Positions 47,790 to 55,683 of a DNA stretch of 64,000 nucleotides are shown piece by piece. This DNA is from an uncultured Gammaproteobacteria bacterium (GTDB taxonomy: Bacteria > Pseudomonadota > Gammaproteobacteria > UBA9214). The notes under the pieces were generated by a model, which searched no databases, had not been told where the DNA came from, and saw only the letters and a list, made by a program, of their open reading frames with translations. Both the position numbers and the translations under genes were made by a program. The stretch's first letter is position 1. Each line of letters begins with the position of its first letter. The stretch is taken from contig CAVVHS010000006.1 of the NCBI GenBank assembly GCA_963748215.1, positions 896,001 through 960,000 on the forward strand. The letters run 5' to 3'.

Positions 47790-48416
47790 CTACCAGTAGA
47801 CCTGCAGGGTCTCTCCTTCAATCCGGTGTTCGAACTCGGTCAGCGGACGGTTGCCGATGTCGACACACGCCCCCGTGGTAACATCGAAGGCCCAGTGGTG
47901 CTTGGGGCAGGTCAGCCGCGTGCCCTCCAGCGCAAGATGCGGAATGTTGGTGACCTGGTGCGGACAGCGGCTGTCGTAGACACGCAGGGTATCGGCGTCC
48001 CGGTAGACAAACAGGCTGCGCCCGTCGCAGTCCAGGTAGGTCACATCGCCCGACGCCAGCTGGTCGAGTTTCGCGACGTCGTGCCAGCGCGATTCCGCGA
48101 ACAGGTTTTCGGGCCGGAACTCGGGAATATCCATGTCGAGCAGGATGTCGATGGCCCAGACAATCTTGGCCAGGCCCAGCGTAGGAAAGGCCATCAGCAG
48201 CGCGTCCAGCACCTCGTTCGGCGTCGCGCCGTTGCGCAGCGCGCGGGTCAGGTACTGGCGGAAACCGCCCTCGGTCTGGGCATCCACCTTGGTGATCACC
48301 GAAATCAGGTCGCGCGTGCGGACATCGAGATGCTTGCCGGCCTCCTTCAAAAACTTGAAATAGTGCGTAATGGCATCGGGGCGCGCGCCCACCAGATAAT
48401 TCAGTGCGTCACTCAT
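47790..48416 (-). CDS. AhpD/CMD-like domain fused to a Rieske [2Fe-2S] domain
   Basis: N-terminal LD.RTR.LIS...ALRNGATPNEV (CMD-like); C-terminal CPH...CPKH Rieske ligands. Confidence 0.78.
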   Translation of the reverse strand: MSDALNYLVGARPDAITHYFKFLKEAGKHLDVRTRDLISVITKVDAQTEGGFRQYLTRALRNGATPNEVLDALLMAFPTLGLAKIVWAIDILLDMDIPEFRPENLFAESRWHDVAKLDQLASGDVTYLDCDGRSLFVYRDADTLRVYDSRCPHQVTNIPHLALEGTRLTCPKHHWAFDVTTGACVDIGNRPLTEFEHRIEGETLQVYW

Positions 48417-48648: not shown

Positions 48649-50211
48649 TCAGGGCAGCATCATGCCGCGGATGGTGAAATAGATGATGGCGGCCAGTACA
48701 CCCGACACGGGCACGGTAATCAGCCAGGCGGCGGCTATCTTCATCAGTGCCGAGCGCTTCACCAGTTCGCTGCGGTAGATTTTCTTCAGCGCCTTGCGCT
48801 CCTTCTTGCTCAATTCGGTGGCGGCCTTGTGCCGCTTGAGCTGTTCCAGCAGGTCACCCTTCTCGGCCAGCGGCGCCGCCTCGAAGCGCGTCATAAAGGC
48901 CTCGACCTCGCCGCGGTCTGCACCCTGGTGGTGGTGTTCGATCTCCACCACCATGCCCGCGTAGGAGGCCTTGATGTACTCGCGCAGGAAACCGACGCCG
49001 AACACGGCGCCCACCGCTATGTGCGTGGAACTCACCGGCAGGCCCAGATGGGTGGCAACGATGACGGTAATGGCGGCACTCAGGGCAATACAGAAGGCAC
49101 GCATCTGGTTCAGTTCGGTAATCTCGCTGCCAACGGTACGGATGAGCTTGGGCCCGTACAGTGCCAGGCCGATGGAAATACCCACGGCGCCGACCATCAT
49201 CACCCACAGGGGAATCGATGCCTTCGTCACGATCAGACCCGAGACAACAGCGTCGTTGATGGCCGCCAGTGGCCCGACGGCGTTGGCCACGTCGTTGGCA
49301 CCATGCGCAAAACTCAGCAGCGCAGCGGCAAAAATCAGCGGCACGATGAACAGCCGGTTGACGCCCTGCTTGGAGTTCTCCAGGCTGACAGCGGCGCGCC
49401 CTACCAGCCACCTGGCGAGCAGAAAGACGGCGGCGGCGACACCGAAACCGATACCCATGGCGGTCGCCATATCCACCTTCCAGATATGCTTCAGGCCCTT
49501 CATCACCAGGTAGGTGCCGAATGCCCAGGCCATGATGGCCACCAGCACGGGCACCATGCGCTTTGCCGCCGTGACCATGTCGGTCTGGTAGGTGATGGTG
49601 CGCTTGATGAGATACAGGAATGCCGCCGCGATGACCCCGCCCAGCACCGGCGAAATCACCCAGCTGGCGGCAATCTGCCCCATCTTCGGCCAGTCCGCGA
49701 TGCCCCAGCCACCGGCCGCGATACCCGCACCCAGCACCCCGCCGACAATGGCATGGGTGGTGGACACCGGCGCGCCGAGCAGCGTCGCGATATTCAGCCA
49801 CAGCGCGCCGGCCAGCAACGCGGCCATCATCAACCAGATGAAGATATCGGCACTGGCGATCAGGTCCGGGGAAATGATGCCACTCTTGATGGTTCCGACC
49901 ACGTCACCGCCGGCGATCAGCGCGCCGGCCGCCTCGAAGATCGCGGCAATCAGGATGGCTCCCGTCAGGGTCAGGGCACGCGACCCGACCGCGGGTCCCA
50001 CGTTGTTGGCGACATCGTTGGCGCCGATGTTCATGGCCATGTAACCGCCGATCATGCCCGCGATCACCAGCATGTAGCTGACCTCGCCGGCACGCGACCC
50101 CACGAACAGCATGATGGCAATGATGAACAGCATCGCCACACCCAGGCGGAAAAATTCTTTACGGCCCACCCAGGTGGCATGTTCAATTTCAGCGAGCTTC
50201 TCGAGTTTCAT
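48649..50211 (-). CDS. PiT-family inorganic phosphate transporter
   Basis: GANDVAN twice, PVSTTH, PVSSTH. Confidence 0.92.
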   Translation of the reverse strand: MKLEKLAEIEHATWVGRKEFFRLGVAMLFIIAIMLFVGSRAGEVSYMLVIAGMIGGYMAMNIGANDVANNVGPAVGSRALTLTGAILIAAIFEAAGALIAGGDVVGTIKSGIISPDLIASADIFIWLMMAALLAGALWLNIATLLGAPVSTTHAIVGGVLGAGIAAGGWGIADWPKMGQIAASWVISPVLGGVIAAAFLYLIKRTITYQTDMVTAAKRMVPVLVAIMAWAFGTYLVMKGLKHIWKVDMATAMGIGFGVAAAVFLLARWLVGRAAVSLENSKQGVNRLFIVPLIFAAALLSFAHGANDVANAVGPLAAINDAVVSGLIVTKASIPLWVMMVGAVGISIGLALYGPKLIRTVGSEITELNQMRAFCIALSAAITVIVATHLGLPVSSTHIAVGAVFGVGFLREYIKASYAGMVVEIEHHHQGADRGEVEAFMTRFEAAPLAEKGDLLEQLKRHKAATELSKKERKALKKIYRSELVKRSALMKIAAAWLITVPVSGVLAAIIYFTIRGMMLP

Positions 50212-50277
50212 AGCCTGTGCTCCGGTTTATTAAAGAAAAATTCATGGCCTGCCGCGACTGGCCAACCCAACCTTCGA

Positions 50278-50295
50278 TTGTCACAAATCTGTCAT
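50278..50295 (+). promoter_or_regulatory. Pho-box-like direct repeat upstream of the PiT gene
   Basis: TTGTCAC-AAAT-CTGTCAT, 11-bp periodicity as in PhoB boxes. Confidence 0.45.
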
Positions 50296-50713
50296 CGTTA
50301 CGCTAACTAAATAAACGGCTGCGGCCATCCTGCATCCTTGCAACACCATGACGCGCAGTGACACAAGCGTTGCCACGGACGCTTGCCCGAGATCAGCGCC
50401 TGACGCCCGTGCCGTCAAGCGGCCGCATTCATCGTCAAGCCGTCCGTCAGCCGAGCCATGCGGGCGACTGTGCTCAGGCACGGGCGGGGCCCCTGCCGTC
50501 ATTTGATCGTAGCGTTGGCTGCGACCGGCCGCGCGATTCCGGCGCGTCTGACAACCGTGGAAATCACAGGCCATGGCATCGCGCCACCGACGCCCTTGCG
50601 AGCTTCTACCCGCCCTGCCATGCCTGTCGCCAGCTGATGGCTGCCCCCTGAATTATCCGGACTAATAACATAGTTATTTCTGTTAGTTACATACCATTTC
50701 TAAAGTTGAACTA

Positions 50714-50745
50714 ATCTTGACTAAAATGGTCAGTTTCTATAGATT
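50714..50745 (+). promoter_or_regulatory. sigma70 promoter overlapped by an Rrf2/IscR-like operator
   Basis: TTGACT-N17-TAGATT; imperfect palindrome TTGACT-AAAAT-GGTCAG covers the -35. Confidence 0.5.
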
Positions 50746-50779
50746 AGTAATTAATTGTATACCCATATAGGAGGTTGTT

Positions 50780-51229
50780 ATGTCCAGTTTGATTACCGGC
50801 TTTCCGCTGGATGGCGTAGTGACCGTGAACCGGGTGATTCTGAAGGACGGTTATACGGTCGATGATCTGCAGGAACGGGTCGCGTTGCTGTGCGAGAACG
50901 TGAAGACCTATCACTCCGATACCGGCTTCGTGGGCGGCTTCGTGGCCCTGAACAGCGGTGACGTTTCCAACGAAGGCTCCACCGTCGGCCAGGCCGTGCA
51001 GAGTCCGCTGGCCAGCCGCGAGGCCCTGATCATCACCTTCTGGCGGTCCTTTGCCGACCACGAGCGTTCACATCGCAGCGCGACCTTCCAGCCGCTGTTT
51101 CGCGACGTACTGGAATTGTGTGAAAACGGCAACGAGGAAATCGCCTACGAAATGCTCTGGTCCGGCAAGGCCTACAGCCCGGCACAGGCGAAGGCGGCCC
51201 GCCAGGCCAAGGAAAAATACGCGGCCTGA
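50780..51229 (+). CDS. single-domain sulfur oxygenase reductase-like (dimeric alpha/beta barrel) protein
   Basis: AGGAGG RBS; LLC...H..GFVG, TFW....DHE..H, G.EE..YE motifs collinear with the SOR N-terminal domain. Confidence 0.6.
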   Translation: MSSLITGFPLDGVVTVNRVILKDGYTVDDLQERVALLCENVKTYHSDTGFVGGFVALNSGDVSNEGSTVGQAVQSPLASREALIITFWRSFADHERSHRSATFQPLFRDVLELCENGNEEIAYEMLWSGKAYSPAQAKAARQAKEKYAA

Positions 51230-51474
51230 TACCCCGCGGTTTGTATCCGGCTGCCAGGTTGATGTGCGGCAGCCGGGCGGGACCGGAGGGGAATTGCCGG
51301 ACCACAACCCGGCAGAAACCGTGTGCCGGATCGACACATTGAATATCCTCGCGGGAATTATCGACTGTTTTTGTCAGGAATTCCCGCGGGATCGGGCTTC
51401 CTGACCATCGGGCGGCAGGTCCCGGCGAGCCGCCCTTGCCTGCCTCCAACCGCGCCCGGAGAGGAGATTTCGGC

Positions 51475-51800
51475 ATGCCATAGCAGCGGTTGCAGGTGAA
51501 GGGGGACCCGTCGGTCAGGGCGTTCCTGTTCCAGCAGTCCAGGGTGGAAAGCCTGTTCGACAGCAAGCTGGACCATCTGCAACCGGTGATCGATGCAGAA
51601 GACACCCGCACGATCCTGATGAATTTAGTCGACTGCGCACCACCGACAAAACCATCTACCTGCGCAACGGCACGATCTACCGCATCAATGGCATGATCGG
51701 CATGATCTTCTCCTGCGACGGTGCACATTATATCGACCACTAGACCTTCTTCGAGAAGCTCGAGACGTTCGCAACGACAACGCACAAGGATGCATTGATG
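51475..51800 (+). pseudogene. decayed hypothetical gene downstream of the SOR-like gene
   Basis: GAGGAG RBS, then MP*QRLQVKGDPSVRAFLFQQSRVESLFD; after a frameshift TIYLRNG..RINGMIGMIFSCDG.HYIDH*TFFEKL. Confidence 0.5.
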
Positions 51801-51816
51801 ATCGCTGCGGATATCT

Positions 51817-51930
51817 AGGGAACCCCATATCAATTCACTCATCGTCATCCCGGCGCATGCCGGGATCCAGTGCTTTCAATAGCCGGGATGCCGGCTTGCG
51901 CCGGCATGACGAATGAATCAGCGATTCCCT
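51817..51930. repeat. MITE-like element enclosing a GTCAT-type REP doublet
   Basis: Imperfect inverted ends agggaacccc...caattc / gaatgaatcagcgattccct around cgtcatcccggc...gccggcatgacg (51843-51911). Confidence 0.6.
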
Positions 51931-51988
51931 GGACAACCGCTTGCGGAAGCTGGGGGCCGGTGTTTTCCAGTGCAACACCCGCCCGCCA

Positions 51989-54628
51989 TCAGGCGGAATC
52001 GTCCTGTCCTTCGCGGTAGATCAGGTTGCGGCGTATCAGCAGCTTCTCGATTTCCACCGCGAACAGCACCAGTGAAGACACCGCAAGGCACATAGCAAGC
52101 TCGGACAGCGGCAGGGGCCGGGTATGGAACACGCCATTCAGGGCCGGCACGTAAATCACTGCCAGCTGCAACAGGAGTGTCACCGCAATCGCGCCCAGCA
52201 TGGGCAGGTTGCTGAACAGGCCGATCGTGAACAGCGATTCGGATTCGCTGCGAACCGCGAGTGAATGAAACAGCTGCGAGACGGTGAGCACCGTGAACAC
52301 GATGGTCTGCCAGTATTCAACGCCGCGTGCTATTGCCCAGGCCTGTGAGGCAATCGAGATTCCGCCGACGAACAGACCCATCCAGAGTATATGCTGCCAC
52401 ATACCGTGCGCGAAGATACTTTCCCCCGGCGCTCGCGGCGGCCGCTTCATCACACCCGGTTCAGCGGGCTCGGCGGAGAAGGCCAGTCCCGGCAGACCGT
52501 CGGTCACCAGGTTGATCCACAGAATATGGATGGGCAACAGCGGTATCGGCAGTCCCAGAAACGGGGCGAGAAACAGCGTCCATATCTCGCCCGAGTTGGA
52601 GCTCATGGTGTCCTTGATGAACTTGCGGATGTTGTCGAAGATACGGCGGCCGGTCTGTACGGCGTTGACGATGGTGGCGAAGTTGTCGTCCAGCAGCACC
52701 ATGTCGGCCGCCTCGCGCGCCACGTCAGTGCCTTTCTGCCCCATCGCCACGCCGATACCCGCACGCTTCAGCGCCGGTGCATCGTTGACGCCGTCACCGG
52801 TCATGGCAACGAATTCGCCATGGACCTGCAGGGCTCCGACGATACGCACCTTCTGCTCCGGACTGACGCGGGCGTAGACACGCACCGTTTCCACCACGTC
52901 GGCAAACGCCGTGTCGGACAGTTGCGCCAGCTCGGTTCCGGTCAGCAACCGCGTATCGTCCGTCATGATGCCGAGCCGTTCCGCAATCGCCCGCGCCGTA
53001 CCGGGATGGTCACCGGTAATCATCACCGGTGTGATGCCCGCCGTCAGACAATCCGCCACGGCCTGCGCCGCTTCCGGCCGTGGCGGATCGATCAGCGCGA
53101 CCAGACCGAGCAGGGTCAGTTGCCGCTCGATCGATTCGGGAAGCGGCTGCGGCGGCGCTTCCGTCAGTTCACGCCGCGCCAGCGCCAGCACGCGATAGCC
53201 CTCCGCGGCCAGTTGCGCAGCGATGGCCAGCATCGCGTCCGCGTCCAGGGGCTGCGTTCCGGTTTCCTGCTGCACATCGACACACTGCGCCAGGACGGTC
53301 TCCGGGGCGCCCTTGACGTAGGCCACCATGCCGGCACCGGCGCGGTGCAGGGTCGTCATGAGCTTGCGCTCGCTGTCAAACGCAATGACCGCCAGGCGTG
53401 GCTGCTCCCGCTCGAGCCGTTGTTTGTCATACCCGGCGGCATGCGCCGCCTGGTACAGGGCCAGCTCGGTCGGCTCGCCGGCGGCCCGGCCATCGACCTC
53501 GACAATGTCGTTGTTCAAGGCCAGGGCCCGGCCCAGTTCCGTCCATGGCAGACCGGCCTCAGGCCCGGGCAGGCTGTCGCTGCGCTGCCCCGCCGCCTCG
53601 ATCAGCTCGACCGTCATGCGGTTTTCCGTCAGCGTACCGGTCTTGTCGGAACAGATATAGGTGACCGAACCGAGCGTCTCGACGGCCGGCAGGTTGCGCA
53701 CCAGCGCGTTGTGCCGGATCAGCTTGCGCGCCCCGAGCGCAAGCGAAATCGTCACCACGGCCGGCAACGCCTCCGGGATGGCGGCCACCGCCAGGCTCAC
53801 CGCGGTCAGAAACATCAACAGCAGTGGCTGCTCCTGCAGCAGCCCCGCCACGAACACGACGGCACAGATCGCCAGTACGGCCAGCGCCAGGTGGCGGCCG
53901 AAACGCGACAACCGCCGTTGCAGCGGCGTCAGGACGCCCTTCTCGCCCTGCAGCAGCTGCGCAATACGCCCGATCTCGGTGCGCTGGCCGGTAGCGATGA
54001 CACTGCCCCGCCCCTGCCCGTGCGTGACCAGGCTGCTCCTGTACACCAGGTTGACCCGGTCCCCGAGCGGCAACCCGGCCTCCGGCAGGCGCTGCACCTG
54101 CTTGCCGATTGCGCCCGATTCTCCGGTCAGCGCGGACTCGTCGGCCTGCAGCTCGCCGGCCTCGAGCAGCCGCAGGTCCGCCGGCACCACGTTACCGGCT
54201 TCCAGTAGCACGATATCACCCGGAACGAGTTGCGACGCATCCAGCGTAATGGCCTTGCCATCGCGCAACACCCTGGCCTCCGGCGCCGCCATGGCACGCA
54301 GCGCCGCGACGGCGCGCTCGGCACGGTATTCCTGCACCGTGCCGATGACGGCATTGAGCAGCACAATCACCAGGATGACAATCGAGTCCTGTGGTTCACC
54401 GATGACACCGGCAATCAGCGCGGCAGCCAGCAGCACGAGAATCATGAAATCGGTGAACTGGCCTGCGAACATGGCCGGCAGGGAACGCCGCCGGGCCTCG
54501 GGCAGGGTATTGGGTCCGTGCTCGATCAGACGCTGCTGCGCCTCTGCACCCGTCAGCCCCCCGGCCGTGACCTCGAGGAGCCGCAGTACCTCGTCGTTAT
54601 CGAGCGTGTGCCACACCGGGTCCGGCAC
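51989..54628 (-). CDS. P-type ATPase, P2A/Ca2+-type
   Basis: [50 protein letters not shown]. Confidence 0.93.
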
Positions 54629-54629
54629 G

Positions 54630-55214
54630 CTAGCCCCCGGTAACGAGATAGATCAGCGCCGCCGTCAGCAACGCGATGAGCAGCGTCTGCAGGCCGCTGC
54701 GCAACCATGCAACACCCGAAATGCGGCCAAGGAACACGCCCAGCAGGAACACCAGCACCAGGGCAGTCATGACCGCCGCATGCAGGGGATCGACCGGCAG
54801 CGGCAGGCCGGCATGCGCAAGCCACAGCGGCAGGATGATGAGCAGCGACAGGAGCAGCGGCGCCGAGCCGTTGACCAGTGCGATCAGCAACGGCACCACG
54901 CGCGCCGCCTTGCCATGGGCACTATCCAGCAGGTCGGTCGCCATGGCCGCCTCCAGGTCACCGAGCGCCCGCCGTCGCTCTGCGGTTTCGCTCACGTAGG
55001 CACTGCTCATGCCGCTCACGCCCAGCGCGATGGCGGCGCCCAGGCAGGCATTGATGGTTACCGACAGGTCGGCGGGCGCGCCGAACAGGAACCCGGTGAT
55101 GATCCCCAGCATGGTAAGCGCACCGTCGAAGCCATTGACCACGAAATAGCGGCGCACGATTCCGTGCGTGCGGGTAATGCGTAGCAGGTACCTTGCCTTG
55201 CCAAGCAGATTCAC
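54630..55214 (-). CDS. VIT1/CCC1-family membrane protein
   Basis: [26 protein letters not shown]; multi-TM. Confidence 0.75.
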
Positions 55215-55486
55215 AATACCCGGGAGCTCGCCGCGCTCTGTACCTCGACTTCGTCGATGCTGTGTATCGAACCGCCCATGTCGCTGATGGCAGACTGTAC
55301 GGCCTCAAAATCGATGGCATCCCCCGCCACCACGACCTGCAGGGTTTCGGTATTCTCGTCCACCTCGAGAACCGTCAGGGTTACAAGGTAGTCATTGCCG
55401 ACGGACGCAATGGCGCGGGAAAACTCCAGCGCATTCGGCTGGTGAGGCTTGAGTACATCCAGGATGATACGCTTGACAAACACCAT
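55211..55486 (-). CDS. DUF211 protein
   Basis: KRIILDVLKPHQP...E.D..TE...GGSIHSIDEV. Confidence 0.82.
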   Translation of the reverse strand: MVFVKRIILDVLKPHQPNALEFSRAIASVGNDYLVTLTVLEVDENTETLQVVVAGDAIDFEAVQSAISDMGGSIHSIDEVEVQSAASSRVL

Positions 55487-55683
55487 CGCTTTTTCTCCCG
55501 TAACCGGAAATACCACATGCGGAAATCCCGGCACAGCCTGACACTTCTTCACGGGAAAAGTATATCTGTTTGACCTGCTGTTTGCTGCAGCCCGTGGCAG
55601 GCGCGCCCGCCTTGCCCGGCCATGCCTCCTGCTCCGACATGACGAATCCCTTCAGTTGCTGGCCGACGGGCGCCGGCCCTGAG

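Follow-up and report, generated by a model that had tools for sequence, protein, structure and literature searches.

To our knowledge, every sulfur oxygenase reductase (SOR) described so far has two domains and assembles into a 24-mer; the enzyme was studied first in thermoacidophilic archaea and is present in some bacteria too. According to one study (PMC7398979), its iron is held by His86, His90 and a bidentate Glu114, with three cysteines 9.5-13 Å away; the variants C31A, H86A, H90A and E114A show no activity, whereas that of C101A and C104A drops only about 10-fold. A second described system that bears on the present locus is the regulator IscR, which in its holo-[2Fe-2S] form binds and represses at a type-1 consensus, ATASYYGACTRWWWYAGTCRRSTAT. 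This repression is lifted by oxidative stress or iron limitation, and iscR sites of P. aeruginosa are 68% and 76% identical to the consensus (PMC3899308). Here we analyze a gene at positions 50780 to 51229 (plus strand) of a 64,000-nucleotide stretch of DNA from an uncultured gammaproteobacterium (contig CAVVHS010000006.1, positions 896,001 to 960,000), hereafter the window. Profile comparisons give good support to the view that the 149-residue protein belongs to a family whose sequence is remotely related to the N-terminal, catalytic half of SOR and retains the residues that SOR cannot do without, and the promoter of the gene carries an IscR type-1-like operator.

The original prediction had proposed, from the letters alone, a half-size relative of SOR with collinear sequence blocks. 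The open reading frame is present with all the quoted peptide blocks in its translation, and SOR came out on top for the single protein in each of three independent libraries: in Pfam (PF07682, E 0.059, 12.7 bits with a cut-off of 25), in NCBIfam (NF047630, E 0.013, 14.6 bits with a cut-off of 400) and among PDB sequences, where all 7 matches were SORs (best E 0.064). Although each of these single-sequence scores is sub-threshold, the collinear resemblance is beyond chance. The coding sequence and the residues concerned are as follows.

50780 to 51229, plus strand, stop codon included: coding sequence of the SOR-like protein of 149 amino acids with a predicted antibiotic biosynthesis monooxygenase (ABM) fold, from the reading-frame call, third-position GC content, homologues and AlphaFold2.
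50891 to 50893, plus strand: codon of Cys38, counterpart of SOR Cys31, placed by hhalign onto bacterial SOR Cys33; invariant.
51059 to 51073, plus strand: H94-E-R-S-H98, counterparts of SOR His86 and His90; aligned, and invariant in the 25-sequence family alignment and in 80/80 long-subfamily sequences.
51119 to 51121, plus strand: codon of Cys114, counterpart of SOR Cys101 by hhalign; kept in 80/80 of the long subfamily, varying in divergent members.
51137 to 51139, plus strand: codon of Glu120, counterpart of SOR Glu114 by hmmsearch and hhalign; invariant.
51179 to 51226, plus strand: Lys/Ala-rich C-terminal helix, residues 134-149 (AlphaFold2 helix 134-148), which marks the long subfamily, predicted to be under IscR control.

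Profiles strengthen the case. The 25-sequence family profile matched 13 PDB sequences, of which the nine best were SORs (E 6.1e-4 to 0.024) and the next an ABM-like protein (E 0.47). Eight authentic bacterial SORs were taken from genomes that belong to the same class; against these, hhalign gave the profile an E of 5.5e-5 and a probability of 66% over 105 columns, and placed C38, H94, H98, C114 and E120 on SOR C33, H88, H92, C103 and E116 in bacterial numbering, which are the archaeal Cys31, His86, His90, Cys101 and Glu114; in the hmmsearch alignment the family cysteine is shifted one residue from that of SOR. Against five generic ABM proteins from this and related genomes, a small control, the family profile gave E 0.4. 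Not even the most divergent family members vary at C38, H94, H98 or E120, while four divergent members (P0122, P0143, P0164 and P0173) have Ala or Val in place of C114, and Cys104 is without a counterpart, so that conservation in the family mirrors the mutagenesis of SOR. When the 25 members were scanned against Pfam, 11 matched SOR and 10 matched ABM. A divergent member, P0173, is the only one above the Pfam SOR cut-off (28.2 bits). It clears the cut-offs of ABM (35.3 bits) and CT0912-like_C (28.1 bits) as well, and so ties the family to the superfamily of dimeric alpha+beta barrels. A further likeness had been suggested between the segment GFVGGFVALNSGDVSNEGS and the second half of SOR. It is visible, but it is not significant (hhalign against SOR C-terminal halves, E 0.033, probability 1.5%, 38 columns), and we rejected it.

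The family is large and has neither a Pfam nor an NCBIfam model. A word-indexed search with the 149-residue protein returned 4406 related protein clusters; the best 120 of these are all about 149 residues long, 81-91% identical and free of Pfam domains, and public records name them 'hypothetical' or 'ligand-binding protein SH3'. An exhaustive search of 50%-identity representatives gave 164 proteins at E <= 1e-3, many of them fragments, with no SOR-length relative among the best 150. In length searches that left out 262-336 residues, the longer forms (337-2000 residues) came down to a single protein, P0271, of 519 residues with PF07929. The family is mis-named in public records, as 'ligand-binding protein SH3', 'HmoA' or 'ABM'; no paper on it was found by searching main texts, with supplementary files outside the search, for SOR-like or ABM single-domain proteins in sulfur oxidizers, nor was one found under the name 'ligand-binding protein SH3'. 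Across 80 long-subfamily sequences, 63/149 positions are invariant, the five SOR-like residues among them, and N17, W88 and H98 are invariant in the family. Core amino-acid identity is 83%; because third codon positions at identical residues are just 63% identical, this conservation reflects purifying selection and not recent transfer.

Besides the long type there is a short subfamily of 128-140 residues, which is without the C-terminal helix and has the same Cys/His/His/Glu residues. Judged from match ranges in a sample of 400 genomes, 16 genomes have the short type alone and 5 have both. The genome studied here carries a short paralogue of 138 residues (G000:C6:443938-444351, minus strand, equal to L082:1498-1914) some 500 kb from the window gene. 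This paralogue keeps the Cys/His/His/Cys/Glu set; upstream of it lie genes for an ABC-2 permease and ATPase, and thioredoxin-2 and an AhpC/TSA redoxin are encoded next to it.

The second line of evidence concerns control of the gene. Three features precede the coding sequence.

50713 to 50737, plus strand: IscR type-1-like operator AATCTTGACTAAAATGGTCAGTTTC, overlapping the -35 element and the spacer; 19/25 matches to the consensus, 18.1 bits.
50717 to 50745, plus strand: sigma-70-type promoter, TTGACT-17 nt-TAGATT, from a promoter scan; arrangement conserved.
50770 to 50774, plus strand: ribosome-binding site GGAGG, 5 nucleotides 5' of the ATG, read from the sequence.

The arrangement of -35 element, dyad and -10 element is kept across gamma- and betaproteobacterial loci. 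For 73 of 80 family genes at least 250 nucleotides upstream and a locatable start were available, and 52 of these 73 promoters match the consensus at 19/25 or better, compared with 8/1460 shuffled controls; 33/73 reach 21/25 and 27/73 reach 22/25. All the matching operators lie on the coding strand, 51-120 nucleotides 5' of the ATG. With a weight matrix trained solely on 10 isc-type sites and a threshold of 14 bits, 59/73 family promoters scored as positive, as against 1/353 other promoters from the same loci. In the short subfamily 0/19 promoters reach 14 bits, and that of the own-genome paralogue scores 3.5. In tandem full-length long-subfamily copies on one strand at another locus (L077:410-892 and 1398-1904), the IscR-type operator stands only at the second copy (20/25 vs 15/25).

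The same palindrome marks iron-sulfur (Fe-S) biogenesis genes. There are 34 such sites in this organism's genome. At 12 regions we scanned a total of 24 flanking proteins against Pfam; here some sites lie directly upstream of an Rrf2 regulator followed by a cysteine desulfurase (iscR-iscS), of a second Rrf2 gene with IscU, and of an ErpA/IscA-like carrier, and further ones upstream of FolE2, a DUF4403 protein, hydantoinase B and unnamed reading frames. The best-scoring Rrf2 gene bears a site of 20-22/25 in 5/5 other genomes, with IscS downstream in 3/5; over all 14 Rrf2 loci, 7 have a site of at least 20/25 and 7 have 18 or less. Altogether the motif was seen at isc-type promoters of 6 genomes. 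With its -35 element and spacer overlapped by the type-1 operator, the promoter should be repressed by holo-[2Fe-2S]-IscR. IscR-type repression of the long subfamily is a well-supported prediction, and the operator, which the original prediction does not mention, would tie the gene to Fe-S cluster homeostasis and change its likely physiological role.

Several other operator-like sites were encountered. Past the stop codon of the gene, by 128 nucleotides, lies a second IscR-type dyad, ATTATCGACTGTTTTTGTCAGGAAT (21/25, window 51347-51391), framed by a perfect 10-bp inverted repeat, CGCGGGAATT ... AATTCCCGCG; the surrounding stretch 51230-51988 (760 nucleotides) has no convincing reading frame and no Rfam match, and an Rfam scan of 50200-52100 gave nothing relevant. 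A site at about 23476 is probably a chance match within a reading frame of 474 residues, and another at about 18127 is upstream of one of 111 residues. The FolE2-type GTP cyclohydrolase has its dyad (20/25) directly upstream, at G000:C1:33849 (L092, about 6850); FolE2-type genes are usually under zinc (Zur) control.

The reading frame is a real gene with its own promoter and ribosome-binding site. Its GC content at third codon positions (0.79) is far above that at second positions (0.43), which argues that it is coding, and such third-position scoring also guided the choice of reading frames around the other family genes. An AT-rich intergenic stretch precedes the gene, and a GGAG(G/A) motif is present in most of the 73 upstream regions of family genes. 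The N-terminus, as read, is without an evident signal peptide, and the protein is therefore probably cytoplasmic. Contigs of relatives spanning 50760-51314 occur in RNA libraries of sediment (4 metatranscriptome runs, 3 studies). Since the gene itself served to find these runs, RNA libraries may contain DNA and the lack of cover on the flanks is no evidence, we take these contigs as a weak hint of transcription only.

The family is confined to sulfur oxidizers in the sample searched, which comprised 400 scored genomes of the class. It was found in 73/400; dsrA was found in 127/401 and soxB in 155/400. Among the 73 carriers 67 have dsrA and 66 soxB, and 73/73 have one or the other, while the family occurs in 0/229 genomes with neither marker, although Fisher values overstate this association because related genomes are not independent. 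The sulfur-oxidizing setting that had been guessed from the sequence is thereby borne out. At least 535 species genomes encode a relative, with carriers including Thioalkalivibrio, Thiobacillus, Sedimenticola, Thiogranum, Thiohalomonas, Hydrogenophilales, Acidiferrobacterales and some metagenome-assembled genomes of Rhodospirillaceae; Thermocrinis and Sulfurisoma have divergent members. Two genomes of about 1.1 Mb retain the gene. An intact copy (72% identity, L117:5998-6444) also lies on a 257-kb viral contig of about 40% GC, near genes for dCTP deaminase, a DNA-polymerase exonuclease subunit, HNH and homing endonucleases and thymidylate kinase. This contig is jumbo-phage-like and its GC content phage-like; a collection of cultured phages gave no family match.

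True SOR is present in 13/401 genomes and is not in this one. Six genomes (G165, whose locus is L090, with G173, G275, G019, G215 and G057) have a divergent group of full-length SOR-like proteins, with Pfam SOR E-values of ~1e-60 to 1e-64 vs ~1e-134 or better for canonical SORs; at 33% identity to canonical bacterial SOR, the L090 protein retains the Cys as well as the His-x3-His and Glu residues. The dsrA of the present genome (G000:C6:353160-354375, minus strand) is in two pieces in different frames, with a break near model position 172 and 4 TGA codons read through in the second piece, a pattern that might come from a frameshift, from an error of assembly or from decay into a pseudogene.

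The protein is predicted to be an ABM-fold homodimer. With the 25-sequence alignment AlphaFold2 gave one domain with a mean pLDDT of 91.2 and a pTM of 0.81; the ESM Atlas holds no model of the 149-residue protein. The topology is beta-alpha-beta-beta-alpha-alpha-beta (strands 13-21, 50-57, 81-88 and 119-124; helices 27-45, 91-98, 104-111 and 134-148), and it contains the ferredoxin-like beta-alpha-beta-beta-alpha-beta domain of the ABM superfamily. The single domain and the probable homo-oligomer of the original prediction agree with these models, in which the homodimer scored an ipSAE of 0.83 in 3/3 runs (best of 3 controls, 0.00) with contact agreement of at least 91% and pLDDT of at least 85. 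The ipSAE mark was attained by 20/30 proteins solved as one-chain pairs and by 1/23 solved as single chains, counts that hold only roughly here because the dimer run used a custom alignment. In the predicted interface strand 49-64 pairs with 118-134 of the partner as a sheet, and residues 38-39, 94-95, 98 and 118-134 take part. The comparison with SOR that had been proposed for profiles and structures came out in two ways: the profile favors SOR, as described above, but Foldseek with the AlphaFold2 model does not single SOR out by fold. Its best matches include IsdG and IsdI, which have the highest identities in the list (16-21%). Against Pfam PF03992 (ABM) the window protein scores 13.5 bits, below the cut-off of 23.1.

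Genes for a PHO4 phosphate transporter and a P-type ATPase, both on the opposite strand, flank the gene, which is predicted to be transcribed on its own from a near-consensus sigma-70 promoter. Across 80 loci and the window no neighbour is universally conserved. Recurrent, lineage-specific neighbours are HtrA/DegP, Hsp20 and an S24 peptidase with MutL; an ATP-sulfurylase gene lies directly downstream on the same strand in 4 loci (L009, L012, L027 and L041), and in 9 Thioalkalivibrio-type loci (e.g. L022 and L044) an ArsR-rhodanese fusion regulator diverges from a shared intergenic region. In the window, a metal-transport cluster adjoins the gene (51989-55552, minus strand), with a P-type cation ATPase of 879 residues, a VIT1-family protein of 194 and a DUF211 protein of 113. 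At 47790-48416 (minus strand) lies a fusion of 208 residues that joins a carboxymuconolactone-decarboxylase (CMD/AhpD-like) domain to a Rieske [2Fe-2S] domain.

What might such a protein do? We favor, with a probability of about 0.38, an enzyme with mononuclear iron and a cysteine persulfide that acts on sulfane sulfur and is switched on when Fe-S clusters fail. The cytoplasmic ABM-fold homodimer would be made from its own near-consensus sigma-70 promoter, and holo-[2Fe-2S]-IscR would repress it at the type-1 operator for as long as clusters suffice. Once clusters become scarce or damaged, for example through oxygen or oxidant stress or iron limitation, the protein would be made. H94, H98 and E120 would hold a mononuclear non-heme iron, C38 would carry sulfane sulfur as a persulfide, and the dimer would then oxidize cytoplasmic sulfane sulfur with O2. 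In this way cells in which the Fe-S-rich Dsr/sHdr route is compromised would have a bypass or safety valve that does not depend on Fe-S clusters. The fullest form of this proposal, a living single-domain version of the SOR catalytic module that works as an IscR-controlled, homodimeric mononuclear-iron, Cys-persulfide oxygenase, backs up Dsr/sHdr and is carried by at least one jumbo phage as well, we regard as unlikely when taken whole.

A number of points weigh against an oxidizing enzyme of this kind. There is no conserved sulfur-gene neighbourhood in the 80 loci and the window; the window protein's own SOR scores are far under the Pfam and NCBIfam cut-offs, and the hhalign probability for SOR is just 66%. 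The short subfamily has identical residues and no operator (0/19), and 60/127 dsrA-positive genomes are without the family. Nor is the family simply a replacement for SOR, because 8/13 SOR-bearing genomes also carry it. The dimer prediction may reflect likeness only, since ABM homodimers have already been solved. Finally, type-1 control by IscR has been described in E. coli for Fe-S biogenesis genes, and this fits a donor of iron or sulfur at least equally well. Such a donor is the alternative that we take most seriously, though we think it rather doubtful: a sulfur-oxidizer-specific accessory of Fe-S biogenesis or repair, in which the His/His/Glu set would bind labile Fe(II), sulfane sulfur would be taken up by Cys38, and the dimer would pass iron and/or sulfur to IscU or A-type carriers, or mend clusters, with no sulfur oxidation for energy or detoxification. 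The operator common to the gene, iscR-iscS, rrf2-iscU and the ErpA/IscA-like gene of this genome speaks for it, as do the 63/149 invariant positions in 80 sequences, which suit a protein with several partners, the retention of the gene in genomes of about 1.1 Mb, and the position of the paralogue beside thioredoxin-2 and the AhpC/TSA redoxin. Type-1 sites are also the holo-IscR sites of the isc operon (PMC3899308). However, an accessory role leaves the restriction to sulfur oxidizers unexplained (0/229 genomes without dsrA or soxB), none of the 81 loci examined has the gene inside an isc or suf operon, the operator is missing from the short subfamily, and the closest characterized relative is an enzyme whose catalytic set is what the family conserves.

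The two other alternatives start from the fold. If the protein were a cofactor-free ABM protein, either a small-molecule oxygenase or isomerase or a stress-induced protein of the 'Dabb' type, then its resemblance to SOR at the active site would have arisen by convergence or be a vestige. This seems improbable to us, given that five residues coincide with the SOR catalytic set in one collinear alignment and are invariant under strong purifying selection, and that generic ABM proteins (n=5) align at only E 0.4. More improbable still is a heme- or tetrapyrrole-degrading monooxygenase of the IsdG/HmoA type that salvages iron at Fe-S shortage, with H98 as the axial ligand and N17 and W88 completing the triad. 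In the catalytic Asn-Trp-His triad of IsdG the spacing from Trp to His is 10, as between W88 and H98 of the family. Such a role draws on the place of IsdG and IsdI among the best Foldseek matches, on the invariance of N17, W88 and H98, on one source that labels short-subfamily members 'heme-degrading monooxygenase HmoA', and on the physiological sense of control by iron or Fe-S status. Yet even with E allowed up to 10, searches of Pfam, NCBIfam and PDB sequences matched no heme-oxygenase family or chain, and SOR has the same Asn, Trp and His positions (N11, W82 and H92, invariant in the SOR alignment), so that these residues do not discriminate between SOR and IsdG. Heme degradation also leaves invariant H94, E120 and C38 and the restriction to sulfur oxidizers unexplained. 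In A. vinosum the 'antibiotic biosynthesis monooxygenase' Alvin_1688 falls together with the dsr genes on pyrite while iscR rises, according to PMC11267869, the one paper found to name it; we mention this as background and did not use it as evidence for any of these readings.

A half-size relative of SOR across hundreds of mesophilic sulfur oxidizers would be a new player in the sulfur cycle, with carriers that include symbiont-sized reduced genomes and a phage. If active, it would offer a minimal model of SOR chemistry. If the IscR-controlled back-up enzyme is the correct reading, dissimilatory sulfur oxidation would be linked directly to Fe-S homeostasis; in any case the predicted control by IscR is a testable handle on the timing of the protein's synthesis, and it hints that sulfur oxidation and Fe-S economy are connected in a way not yet explored. 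Even as a donor of iron or sulfur and not an oxygenase, the protein would represent a very widespread family that Pfam and NCBIfam do not model.

Among described systems, the type-1 regulon resembles the locus in its control. Its members include iscRSUA and, in E. coli, also erpA and nfuA. As at iscR promoters, the dyad that matches the consensus overlaps RNA-polymerase recognition elements, although the family protein stands outside every known Fe-S biogenesis family. The two Rrf2 regulators of this genome that have such sites are two candidate regulators, and binding by IscR is a prediction. IsdG, IsdI and HmoA share the ABM fold predicted for the family, in which Asn, Trp and His are invariant at comparable positions; they have no match to it at the sequence level, and the extra invariant His, Glu and Cys are features of the family. 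Of other ABM proteins (PF03992), SnoaB (3kg0), ActVA-Orf6 (1lq9) and TT1380 (1iuj) are metal-free or heme-using; the present family differs in its Cys/His/His/Glu set, its 23-residue loop between beta2 and beta3 and its C-terminal helix.

The best sequence-profile match is SOR (PF07682, NF047630; PDB 2cb2, 6m35, 6qpa and 7x9w), with family residues 16-129 collinear with SOR residues 8-127. In this alignment the iron ligands His86, His90 and Glu114 have putative counterparts in invariant H94, H98 and E120, and the essential Cys31 has one in invariant C38; of the pocket pair Cys101 and Cys104, the family has C114 for the former and nothing for the latter. Both proteins would share the alpha+beta-barrel, ABM-type fold, as far as the model of the family version can be relied on. 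SOR has about 310 residues in two ferredoxin-like halves, whereas the window protein has 149 in one domain, and SOR assembles into a hollow sphere of 24 identical subunits (PMC7398979), whereas a homodimer is predicted for the family, with two copies modelled. Both are found in sulfur oxidizers, true SOR co-occurring with the family in 8 of the 13 SOR genomes, and the long subfamily is set apart from SOR by its IscR-type operator.

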